A stretch of 64,000 nt of DNA from Curvularia clavata (taxonomy: Eukaryota): positions 62,001-126,000 of the forward strand of contig CP089278.1 of assembly GCA_023920165.1 (NCBI GenBank), given 5' to 3'. The position numbers were made by a program, and so were the translations under genes. The stretch's first letter is position 1, and every line of letters starts with the position of its first letter. The notes under the pieces are model-generated. The model saw only the letters and a list, made by a program, of their open reading frames with translations. It had not been told where the DNA came from and made no database searches. This document shows, in pieces, positions 46,499 through 48,173 of the stretch.

Positions 46499-48173
46499 CT
46501 ACGGTATCAATCTTCCAATGTCTCTTGGAAAAAGCGTAGCTTCGCGAACGTCATCGAGGTCCAAGAACCCCTGAAGCAACCTGTTGACCCCAAGTCCGCA
46601 GCCGCCATGACGTGGCATACCGGTCTTGAAAGCAGTCAGGTAAGGTTGCCACTTTTCTGCTTTTGGATCTAATGGCGGGCCGCAAATACCAGCAGACATT
46701 GCCTCACATAGCTCATTATAGGAATTAATCCGCTGGCTTCCAGAGCATATTTCTCGCCCTCTAACTATAGTGTCCCAAGTGTTAGAAAGGCCTGGAACAT
46801 TGGGATTGGCTTGAGAATTAAATTGACGCATGGATGCCGGGAACTGGTCGATTGTGAATATATCCGTGCCACCCCAATTAGGCGACATACGGAAATGACG
46901 GCCAAGAGCAGCTTCTTCCTGATCACTGTACAAATTTATAAGCTATTCGCGCTCACGAGGTAGATAGCATAGCAAATCAAAACGACTTACGTGAAATTTT
47001 TGTTGTCTTGTGTTTCAAAGCCAAGCTCTTCTCTGAGGATGCGTTTAGCCTCCAGAAAAGTGATGCGAGGCACCTTTCCTGTTTTGTCGAGACTGATTTT
47101 GAAATCTCTTGCTGATGGATACAGATTCATGAAAGTCTCAATGAGATGCTTATACGACGTCCGCTCCTGCAACGCCCTAAAAACAAACACAAGCATAGAC
47201 TCGATCAATTCCATCACCTCATGGTAATCATTCTGGAAGACCATGCCGATATCGAGTACTGTGAACTAGAGCAGGTGAGATCTTAGCGAACAGTCAAGAG
47301 GTGCCTTAGGTGGGGTTCAAACTCTCGTATGATAAAACACTCCTTACCTCAGTCAAATGTCTCGAAGATTCGCTAGATTTGACTTCGGCCCGAAAAACAG
47401 GCCCAATCTCGAAAACGCGCTGCATATCCATCGAAAGGGCCATTTGTTTGTGATGCTGAGAGCTTTGAGATAACCATGCATCCCTTCCAAAATATGGTAG
47501 ATGAAAGTATTCATTGTCACCCGGAATTGTGGCAGTGATAATGCGAGGTGTGTGGATCCAGTAGAATCCATTCGAGCATAAAAATTCGACTATCAACTGA
47601 CAAATGCCGGAGTGCAGTTTGAAGATTACACCAGACGCTGCGTGTCTTACATCAATGATGCGATTGTTGAGTCGCTCTTCGAGACTAGAGAATCGATCTT
47701 GTTGTGACAAAAGAATGTCTGGAGACGCCAGTGCAATAATCTCAATACCACTGACATATAGTTCACGCGATGGAGTTAAGATGCCATCTTCGCAATCCAC
47801 GTGATTACCATCGCGTTTGGCGGGCTCGAAATGACCTGTAACACGGATTATAGATTCCCTTGTGATCTCTTTTGCATCTTTCCATGTTGACTCCTCAACA
47901 CTCGTCGCCTGAACAGTGGCTGTAAGGCAGGTCCGTGAGACCCTGAGCTGGATTCTGATCTCTTCTGGTTGCCGAAGTACCGATATCGAATCAACTCTTG
48001 CATCAAATGTTACTTTGCCATGTATATGAACCCCACACCGAAGGTCAAACTAAGATAATCGTCAGACGCATTGTGTGTCCACATCTAGACCTTTCTGGAG
48101 ACCTTACAATATGATCCAAATCTGGTAATAAACGAGGATCATGGACAATGTCTTCTTTTTCAATATGGCTCAT
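46499..48173 (-). CDS. aspartyl-tRNA synthetase paralogue (class IIb, eukaryotic type), diverged, 4 exons
   Basis: Motifs RLNNRIIDVR, IHTPRI, LSQSSQHHKQM, VFEIGPVFRAE..RHLTEF (motif 2), GREICSGSQR, HGGCGLGVNR (motif 3), LFPRD. Degenerate OB-fold at the N-terminus. Confidence 0.9.

Follow-up and report, generated by a model that had tools for sequence, protein, structure and literature searches.

A gene resembling that for aspartyl-tRNA synthetase (AspRS) was located in a 64,000-nucleotide stretch of Curvularia clavata DNA (assembly GCA_023920165.1, contig CP089278.1, positions 62,001 to 126,000; hereafter the window). The window is eukaryotic in character, with spliced genes and a GC content of 35-58%. 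The gene is intact and encodes a heavily remodelled class IIb protein of AspRS type. The position that an earlier note, made from the sequence alone, had given for it was exact, and the reading frame at that position is intact. The four exons (Table 1) are separated by three introns of 58, 82 and 65 nt, all with canonical GT..AG splice sites, and the coding sequence of 1470 nt specifies 489 aa with zero internal stops. The product aligns without gaps to that of the Parastagonospora nodorum orthologue P0002 (489 aa), with 409 of 489 residues identical (83.6%), and its final 400 aa are identical to the C. clavata record P0001. The public model P0001 itself (654 aa) is a chimera, in which the AspRS-like gene is merged with the upstream 2-oxoglutarate (2OG) oxygenase and loses the initial half of its OB-fold.

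The class IIb catalytic domain with motifs 1-3 was found by Pfam scan as PF00152 in exon 2 (66.9 bits), exon 3 (20.8 bits) and exon 4 (83.3 bits). The orthologue P0002 scored 184.9 bits for the same family, against ∼270 bits for canonical AspRS, and PF00152 was the sole significant Pfam family in P0002, P0003 and P0005. Identity to canonical AspRS was ∼33-36%. The curated NCBIfam profile for AspRS, NF003483 (cut-off 353 bits), was failed by four of four AspRS-like proteins (282, 299, 267.5 and 273 bits) and passed by four of four canonical controls (379-426 bits). With TIGR00458 (cut-off 368.4 bits) all four AspRS-like proteins again failed (267, 300, 254 and 269 bits), and three of the four canonical controls passed.

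Protein homologues were searched with exon 2 as the query, giving at least 120 matches. Among the matches listed, the 38 top protein clusters (171-417 bits) carried PF00152 without an OB-fold model; beyond these the scores dropped to canonical AspRSs at 116 bits or less. The 38 clusters span 30 named species from the Dothideomycetes, Eurotiomycetes, Sordariomycetes and Lecanoromycetes. Five further divergent stand-alone members (300-324 bits), designated PAR2, were obtained by exhaustive search from Annulohypoxylon, Hypoxylon, Fusarium, Trichoderma and Discula. A metagenome scan gave 594 pattern matches, of which 557 were relatives, and 80 loci were retained. The near-identical pair L001 and L002 alone belonged to the AspRS-like family type, at 45-46% identity; the remaining 78, at 29-36% identity, were assigned to ordinary AspRS on identity level alone. 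P0248 was considered as a fused relative and rejected as a protein of the parasitic plant Orobanche gracilis. This protein of 914 aa contains an OB-fold and two tandem class IIb stretches (PF00152 472.8 bits over both), and may have arisen by duplication in tandem or from two genes fused in the model.

A maximum-likelihood tree was calculated from 73 rows, comprising 28 members of the AspRS-like clade, 5 PAR2 proteins, 17 canonical AspRSs, 11 ErdS-type proteins and, as outgroup, 12 short unnamed representatives. ErdS is a fungal fusion of AspRS to DUF2156, an ergosteryl-aspartate synthase that has bona fide AspRS signatures and charges tRNA(Asp) (PMC7334510). The 33 stand-alone proteins formed one clade, with a Shimodaira-Hasegawa-like approximate likelihood ratio (SH-aLRT) support of 100 and a stem of 1.39 substitutions per site, which fell outside canonical AspRS plus ErdS. 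The ErdS-type fusions, with PF09924, formed their own clade (support 99%) inside canonical eukaryotic AspRS, beside a basidiomycete cytoplasmic AspRS. The deep placement of the AspRS-like family is unsure, given its long branch, supports of 84-94 and a non-monophyletic outgroup (4 of 12 rows on the wrong side). A phylogeny had been proposed as a check in the earlier note, and the AspRS-like clade came out separate, with support of 100, from both housekeeping AspRS and ErdS. On the evidence of sequence, the AspRS-like family is a discrete Pezizomycotina group distinct from these two. Inside the clade, the Hypocreales were joined by Penicillium salamii and Aspergillus section Flavi (support 100), unlike the species tree, and A. 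heteromorphus and A. ellipticus joined lichen-forming fungi. Such non-species branching is typical of mobile gene clusters and suggests horizontal spread, between fungal classes, of the gene module described below.

Mean pairwise identity in the catalytic domain was 77% within the clade and 62% among 12 canonical AspRSs, and in the OB region 39% and 41%, the canonical set being far more widely sampled. There were 131 catalytic columns identical in at least 11 of the 12 canonical sequences; of these, 41 were lost (retained in 3 or fewer of 28 clade members), and 78 were retained in 25 or more. The lost columns mostly hold another residue that is fixed in 28/28. The fixed replacements include, for motif 1, E to W and K to R, for the flipping loop G to D, and further Y to N, Y to W, E to R and A to S, as well as E to N and M to Q in motif 3. 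Since lost canonical residues were mostly replaced by new residues fixed in every clade member, a change of function is indicated rather than decay, and neutral decay is excluded by the 77% identity of the catalytic domain across the clade. Most of the motif changes described below are fixed in 28/28 clade members, at sites where 11-12 of 12 canonical AspRSs agree, and are not chance substitutions.

Motifs were checked in the translated window product and against yeast AspRS (1ASY), with yeast numbering taken as chain index + 67, counted from the alignment. The roles of the named yeast residues, in the pocket and at the anticodon contacts, are those which we take to be established in the AspRS structural literature. 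The motif changes of the earlier note were all recovered in these comparisons. The flipping loop SEGG reads IPGD (TATIPGDNEYF, residue 194), QSPQ..KQ reads QSSQHHKQ (residue 217), FRAENSNTHRH reads FRAEVKSSESSRH and is 2 residues longer (residue 241), FTGLD.EM reads FTVLDIGM with the conserved Glu replaced by Gly (residue 257), and GLER reads GVNR (residue 455). SGxQR is kept, with SGAQR reading SGSQR (residue 408), and the ATP-binding arginines of motifs 2 and 3 are retained, being invariant in 40/40 aligned sequences. When mapped on 1ASY, the changed sites were S280/E281, P302, the motif-2 loop, E344, A483 and E530, and the kept sites Q300, S301, Q303, K306, R325, E327, H334, F338, D342, D471, E478, S481, R485 and R531.

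In the clade (n = 28) the residues that hold the aspartate side chain were largely present (Lys 26/28, Asp 25/28, Arg 28/28). The flipping-loop Ser was Ile or Val in 28/28 and the Glu was retained in 1/28; the Pro of QSPQ was Ser, Thr or Ala in 28/28, and Glu344 was Ala or Gly in 27/28 with one gap. The set of residues with which canonical AspRS binds aspartate (Ser-Glu of the flipping loop, QSPQ..K, Asp342/Glu344 and the SGAQR Arg) was thus not complete in the clade. Judged from these positions, the alpha-amine clamp is lost and the Lys/Asp/Arg grip on the side chain is kept in the subclade of the window protein. The ErdS control retained the alpha-amine clamp as well as the anticodon-reading residues and the positive charge of the OB-fold.

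The residues for adenylation (motif-2 Arg and Glu, Mg-binding Asp and Glu, motif-3 Arg) were present in 33/33 family members. The substrate pocket varied by subclade. The main clade, with the window protein, keeps Lys, Asp and Arg; in subclade B (A. fumigatus, P. fimorum and A. spinulosporus) Lys is replaced by Asn and Asp by Gly; in PAR2, Gln is replaced by Glu, Lys by His, Leu or Gln, Asp by Glu, and Arg by Phe, His, Ala, Leu or Ser. The ATP-binding arginines and Mg-binding ligands were constant across all three groups. Constant adenylation residues with a varying substrate pocket are the behaviour of biosynthetic ligases, not of resistant housekeeping enzymes. Because the changes at the flipping-loop Ser-Glu and from Glu344 to Gly surround the alpha-amino group, we infer that the substrate of the window subclade is aspartate-like and modified at or near the nitrogen.

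The N-terminal domain was found to be remodelled in a different manner. PF01336 (OB) scored just 14 bits (E 0.048) in the window protein against 24-27 bits in two canonical controls, bearing out the remark in the earlier note that the OB-fold departs from its usual sequence pattern, and there was no match at E ≤10 in four of four other clade members tested. The N-terminal extension, which had been noted as short, averages 22 aa in the clade against 90 aa in canonical AspRS, and its Lys-rich part is gone. Equivalents of R119, F127, Q138 and E188 were present in 0/28, 0/28, 8/28 and 2/28 clade members, respectively; in the controls they were present in 9/9 ErdS proteins each (9 of the 11 ErdS-type proteins, two without the N-terminal part being excluded) and in 11-12 of 12 canonical sequences. 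The net charge of the OB domain was -2.9 in the clade (range -8 to 0) and +2.8 in canonical AspRS (0 to 5). Among 16 OB columns near-invariant in canonical AspRS, 5 were kept and 7 lost in the clade, and the replacements were variable. The proportion of canonical-invariant cells kept was 78% for ErdS, 34% for the clade and 37% for PAR2 in the OB domain, and 82%, 64% and 50%, respectively, in the catalytic domain.

An AlphaFold2 model of the AspRS-like protein had a predicted local distance difference test score (pLDDT) of 80.6. Five strands and a helix of the OB domain were modelled at pLDDT 81-94, and uncertainty was confined to the termini, the hinge, a variable loop in the OB domain and the motif-2 loop, which is enlarged. 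It aligned with yeast AspRS over its full length (∼472 columns) with a template modelling (TM) score of 0.75-0.78. The anticodon domain, called degenerate or eroded in the earlier note, has thus lost its RNA-reading residues and its positive charge; the fold itself is intact in the model and in the yeast alignment.

Two oxygenase genes were found next to the AspRS-like gene, encoding an Fe(II)/2OG oxygenase and a haem-oxygenase-like diiron (HDO) protein (Table 1). Among the matches listed, 8 of the 38 AspRS-like cluster rows were gene models fused to a 2OG oxygenase; in some A. fumigatus strains the 2OG oxygenase (P0417) has an annotation of its own, and its accession directly follows or precedes that of the AspRS-like gene. 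HDO homologues were taken from the best 120 of 347 matches. These lay on a contig equal in length to that of the AspRS-like gene, and read as shared with it, in 21 of the 30 named species and in a different assembly for 4 more; for the remaining 5 none was among the matches listed, which is no evidence of absence. The locus tags of the HDO and AspRS-like genes were 1-4 apart in 11 species. In the metagenomic loci L001 and L002, which count as one observation, the HDO, 2OG oxygenase and AspRS-like genes stand side by side with the AspRS-like gene transcribed divergently, and no accessory genes of the window cluster were found there, including no homologue of the gamma-glutamyl(amine) cyclotransferase-like (GGACT) enzyme. 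As judged by gene order across these genomes, the HDO, 2OG oxygenase and AspRS-like genes are a syntenic three-gene module, in which both oxygenases are constant partners.

Table 1. Features of the window, with positions counted from its first nucleotide
Feature	Position	Strand	Remarks
AspRS-like gene, whole	46499..48173	-	4 exons
AspRS-like exon 1	48108..48173	-	start codon at 48173; 22 codons; N-terminus MSHI.. agrees with P. nodorum orthologue P0002
AspRS-like exon 2	47348..48049	-	234 codons; OB-fold, hinge, motif 1, remodelled flipping loop, QSSQHHKQ, motif 2 with 2-aa insertion
AspRS-like exon 3	46991..47265	-	FTVLDIGM and variable insertion region of catalytic core
AspRS-like exon 4	46499..46925	-	Mg/ATP ligands, CSGSQR, clade-specific GICGPPLDP insert, motif 3 GGCGLGVNR, stop codon
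Fe(II)/2OG oxygenase	49060..49973	-	PF14226 and PF03171; exons ∼49973-49620 and 49575-49060 (tblastn); immediately upstream of AspRS-like gene
HDO protein, 763 aa	51324..53615	-	PF14518 118.8 bits; third member of the trio
GGACT/AIG2-like enzyme	45442..45975	+	PF06094 27.2 bits; lineage-specific accessory
AnkG/Cp1B-type ATP-grasp ligase, 507 aa	43531..45109	+	two exons; PF28486 AnkG_N; equals P0241; tblastn
ANL/PaaK-like adenylate-forming ligase, candidate amide-bond synthetase	∼41586..43122	-	NF045666 E 4.2e-18, PaaK 1.8e-08; PF00501 weak, 20.2 bits
Pyridoxal phosphate (PLP)-dependent group II decarboxylase	∼39163..40637	-	several exons; PF00282 in two open reading frames, 34.3 and 44.1 bits
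Major facilitator superfamily (MFS) transporter	54073..55638	+	PF07690 143.3 bits; flanks the trio

The HDO protein was modelled with AlphaFold2 as all-helical (pLDDT 80), and the model was compared in full with 48,161 chains using VIA-align. The best matches to residues 46-359 were SznF (Z 20.0, 257 residues aligned, root-mean-square deviation 3.3), RohS (Z 19.1) and HrmI (Z 18.1); FlcD (14.7), BesC (11.8), CADD (11.5) and UndA (9.8) were clearly below these three. Foldseek gave weak matches only (E 5e-3 or worse). SznF hydroxylates guanidine nitrogens of methyl-arginine, RohS is the enzyme of 2-nitroimidazole formation and HrmI oxygenates the epsilon-nitrogen of lysine, and on its fold the HDO is predicted to be N-oxygenase-like. 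Residues 360-538 had no structural match at all. Residues 539-757 (window 51324-52000) form a second helical bundle, haem-oxygenase/TenA-like at Z 8-9.7, a level that helical proteins reach by noise. Two HDO homologues of Orbilia oligospora (P0193 and P0194) are fused to a class I/II aminotransferase domain (PF00155), a fusion which hints at amino or keto acids as substrates of the HDO family. In the public HDO model P0121 (670 aa) an internal Met at 53336 is taken as the start, yet the open frame extends to 53615 and the orthologues have 750-770 aa; both P0121 and P0001 look wrong as gene models.

Compared with solved structures, the 2OG oxygenase exon matched nothing but generic iron/ascorbate oxygenases, and the GGACT homologue had no match. 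Complex prediction for the A. fumigatus AspRS-like protein P0412 with the 2OG oxygenase P0417 gave a score of 0.00 from single sequences without controls, which speaks neither for nor against binding.

The decarboxylase, ANL ligase and ATP-grasp genes stand in a row (39163-45109), like the 'acid + amino acid + amine' cassette of E-64, and by this analogy the end product of the cluster is suggested to be a small pseudopeptide. The E-64 pathway is independent of nonribosomal peptide synthetases (NRPS) and employs the ATP-grasp enzyme Cp1B, which is distantly AnkG-related, the ANL amide-bond synthetase Cp1D and the decarboxylase Cp1C, along with the Fe/2OG epoxidase Cp1A (PMC12568646). The window has an AnkG_N ATP-grasp, an ANL/PaaK-like ligase and a PLP decarboxylase (PF00282), a likeness at the level of protein family. 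No aaRS-like (aminoacyl-tRNA synthetase-like) or HDO gene is named for the E-64 clusters in main-text passages of PMC12568646, where 'aspartyl' and 'heme oxygenase' are absent and 'tRNA' occurs for AnkA only. Six homologues of the ATP-grasp were found, all from Pleosporales or unnamed records, and this gene is therefore a lineage-specific addition.

A galactose-oxidase-like gene with PAN, Kelch and GO-like E-set domains over two open reading frames lies just upstream of the cluster (34657-37059). Elsewhere in the window, an Asp/Glu/hydantoin racemase (PF01177, 177.8 bits), an amidohydrolase, a D-2-hydroxyacid dehydrogenase and a carbon-nitrogen hydrolase are encoded at 9936-17310, suggesting a set for hydantoin or D-amino-acid utilisation. 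The region 18001-24000 is AT-rich (GC 0.35-0.39) with an AT skew of -0.18 to -0.20 and hardly any long open reading frames, and may be a repeat-rich region or one affected by repeat-induced point mutation, lying between two gene-dense blocks. At 26176-27579 on the reverse strand an open reading frame of 467 aa lies in the GC-richest part (0.578); it has no Pfam match and is overlapped by long open reading frames on both strands.

Paralogues of aaRSs have been recruited as biosynthetic ligases in several systems, among them AsnA, EpmA, the amino-acid:carrier-protein ligases, the MetRS-like hydrazine synthetases and ErdS. The best sequence match of the AspRS-like protein in the Protein Data Bank was canonical cytosolic AspRS (E 1e-64; yeast Dps1 and human DARS1; 1ASY, 1EOV, 4J15), with which it shares the OB-fold and class IIb core, the ATP/Mg residues and the Lys, Asp and Arg for the aspartate side chain. 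The family differs from it in 41 of 131 catalytic positions, a motif-2 loop longer by 2 aa, the changed flipping-loop Ser-Glu, Glu344 and motif-3 Glu, an acidic OB domain, the missing N-terminal extension, a patchy distribution and its location in clusters. ErdS is a fungal AspRS paralogue recruited outside translation, as is proposed for the AspRS-like gene; unlike the AspRS-like family, ErdS-type proteins score 236-254 bits for PF00152, are fused to DUF2156 and nest inside canonical AspRS. Membership of ErdS was rejected, as the 489-aa product ends at the AspRS C-terminus without PF09924.

AsnA and the archaeal AS-AR are AspRS-derived enzymes that adenylate aspartate for a non-tRNA nucleophile, AsnA without an OB-fold (PMC9437257). 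Their mechanism is of the kind proposed here for the AspRS-like protein; AsnA differs in being prokaryotic, in not being clustered with oxygenases and in its lack of the OB-fold. Membership of AsnA/AS-AR was rejected on the presence of the OB-fold and on the scores with NF005052 (90.6 bits, cut-off 368), NF005054 (87.4 bits, cut-off 309) and the structure 1NNH (45 bits).

With moderate confidence, the AspRS-like gene is read as encoding a catalytically competent biosynthetic ligase that adenylates aspartate, or an acid resembling it, and acts in the three-gene module and not in translation. The scheme builds on the observed integrity, family membership, residue pattern, fold and synteny of the gene; its substrate, acceptor and product are proposed. 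The AspRS-derived class II fold would bind ATP and an acidic substrate, in the window subclade aspartate or a similar C4 acid that carries a change at the alpha-nitrogen or close to it. An acyl-adenylate would be formed, and the acyl group handed to a nucleophile other than anticodon-selected tRNA(Asp). Together with the N-oxygenase-like HDO and the Fe/2OG oxygenase, the ligase would make a small nitrogen-oxygenated, aspartate-containing metabolite, which in C. clavata is probably elaborated by the E-64-type cassette, the GGACT-like enzyme and the MFS exporter. The suggestion in the earlier note of a repurposed tRNA-independent adenylating enzyme gains support from the anticodon losses, the OB charge, the failure of the AspRS cut-offs, the diversification of the pocket and the synteny with oxygenases; its 'tRNA-independent' part is not proven, the OB-fold being kept.

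A narrower form of this scheme, in which the trio is a fungal split counterpart of the bacterial machinery for heteroatom bonds and yields an N-N or N-O linked product, is improbable. The HDO would N-oxygenate an amine to the hydroxylamine; the AspRS-derived enzyme, with ATP, would acylate the hydroxylamine with aspartate or activate N-hydroxy-aspartate; and rearrangement or oxidation of the adduct by the Fe/2OG oxygenase, with its cupin fold, would give the N-N or N-O product. Bacterial heteroatom-heteroatom bond formation combines an N-oxygenase, an aaRS-type activator and a cupin, and includes the diiron and cupin domains of SznF (PMC12376268, PMC13755311). In bacterial hydrazine synthetases a class I MetRS-like domain is fused to a zinc cupin and accompanied by a flavin N-hydroxylase (PMC12376268), and valanimycin is made by a seryl-tRNA route (PMC13755311). 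The fungal trio resembles these in that a putative N-oxygenase, a protein of aaRS type and a metalloenzyme with a cupin fold are encoded together; it differs from the hydrazine synthetases in having a class II AspRS-like protein, a separate Fe/2OG oxygenase of generic iron/ascorbate type and a diiron HDO. The resemblance is an analogy, to be taken as a lead and not as a result.

Several observations weigh against the adenylating-ligase reading. The main clade's full Lys/Asp/Arg set is compatible with a true AspRS. The N-oxygenase-like assignment of the HDO is a matter of fold similarity alone. HDO homologues (40-56% identity) also occur in species, among them Zopfia, Cytospora, Cladonia, Sclerotinia and Orbilia, that are not represented by an AspRS-like protein among the matches listed, so the trio may not be obligatory. 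The OB-fold, moreover, is retained, confidently folded and 39% identical within the clade. EpmA, a tRNA-independent aaRS relative, is without an OB domain altogether. Since the tRNA-independent AsnA and EpmA do without this domain and the AspRS-like family has kept it, some binding of RNA or of a partner may persist. The well-folded OB domain is the chief unexplained feature of the adenylating-ligase reading and the chief argument for the best placed of its rivals.

This rival, which is unlikely and still to be taken seriously, holds that the protein charges a dedicated pathway tRNA with aspartate or a modified amino acid without reading the anticodon, and that a neighbouring enzyme uses the aminoacyl-tRNA as acyl donor or carrier. 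Besides the retained OB-fold and overall AspRS architecture, it is favoured by a motif 2 that is remodelled clade-wide and not degraded, and by HDO residues 360-762, about half of that protein, which have no assigned function. There are precedents for tRNA-dependent steps in AnkA (PMC12568646), ErdS (PMC7334510) and the seryl-tRNA of valanimycin (PMC13755311). Against this stand the loss of the residues that contact the anticodon, the acidic OB domain and the missing Lys-rich extension. No aminoacyl-tRNA transferase domain (DUF2156/GNAT or CDPS) was recognised in the scanned open reading frames, and no tRNA gene was found in the window, L001 or L002.

It is doubtful that the gene is a self-resistance AspRS, an insensitive copy that keeps tRNA(Asp) charged when the cluster product inhibits the housekeeping enzyme. 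Extra aaRS copies are an established resistance device; the gene does lie inside a biosynthetic cluster, its changes concentrate around the amino-acid/adenylate pocket, and the Lys, Asp and Arg for the aspartate side chain are kept in the window subclade. A resistance copy must nevertheless do the whole job of the enzyme it replaces, and here the tRNA-recognition features are not retained: the anticodon positions that ErdS keeps in 9/9 are lost, the AspRS cut-offs are failed and identity to canonical AspRS is just ∼33-36%. The loss of the aspartate-binding Lys, Asp or Arg in sister subclades fits changing substrates and not one conserved target, and the constant neighbours are two oxygenases only, with no obvious scaffold-forming enzyme for an adenylate mimic. 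The self-resistance alternative raised in the earlier note is accordingly disfavoured, the features needed for full tRNA(Asp) charging being gone. That the gene is a decaying or non-catalytic duplicate, either a pseudoenzyme or a scaffold or regulator like HisZ, is very improbable: AspRS-universal residues are indeed changed (flipping-loop Ser-Glu, Glu344, motif-3 Glu), yet the frame and splice sites are intact, the catalytic domain is 77% identical across four Ascomycota classes, the replaced positions are themselves fixed in 28/28 and the ATP- and Mg-binding residues are all kept.

In the literature searched, no AspRS-derived family of stand-alone proteins was found described for filamentous fungi. 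Under AspRS, a 2022 review of aaRS duplications lists AsnA/AS-AR and ErdS and no others, and a 2026 mini-review of HDOs, as searched by terms, has no mention of fungal or eukaryotic members. If the heteroatom-bond scheme were true, the AspRS-like protein would to our knowledge be the first class II aaRS-derived, and the first eukaryotic, enzyme in such chemistry. The public name 'aspartate-tRNA ligase' is probably wrong for these proteins, and mining guided by resistance genes could be led astray by it. A compact three-gene module is marked by the family in Dothideomycetes, Eurotiomycetes, Sordariomycetes and Lecanoromycetes, with hosts that include insect pathogens (Metarhizium, Beauveria and Cordyceps), plant pathogens and Aspergillus fumigatus. 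The module is probably missed by cluster finders keyed on polyketide synthase, NRPS and terpene cores, and is small enough for direct heterologous reconstitution.

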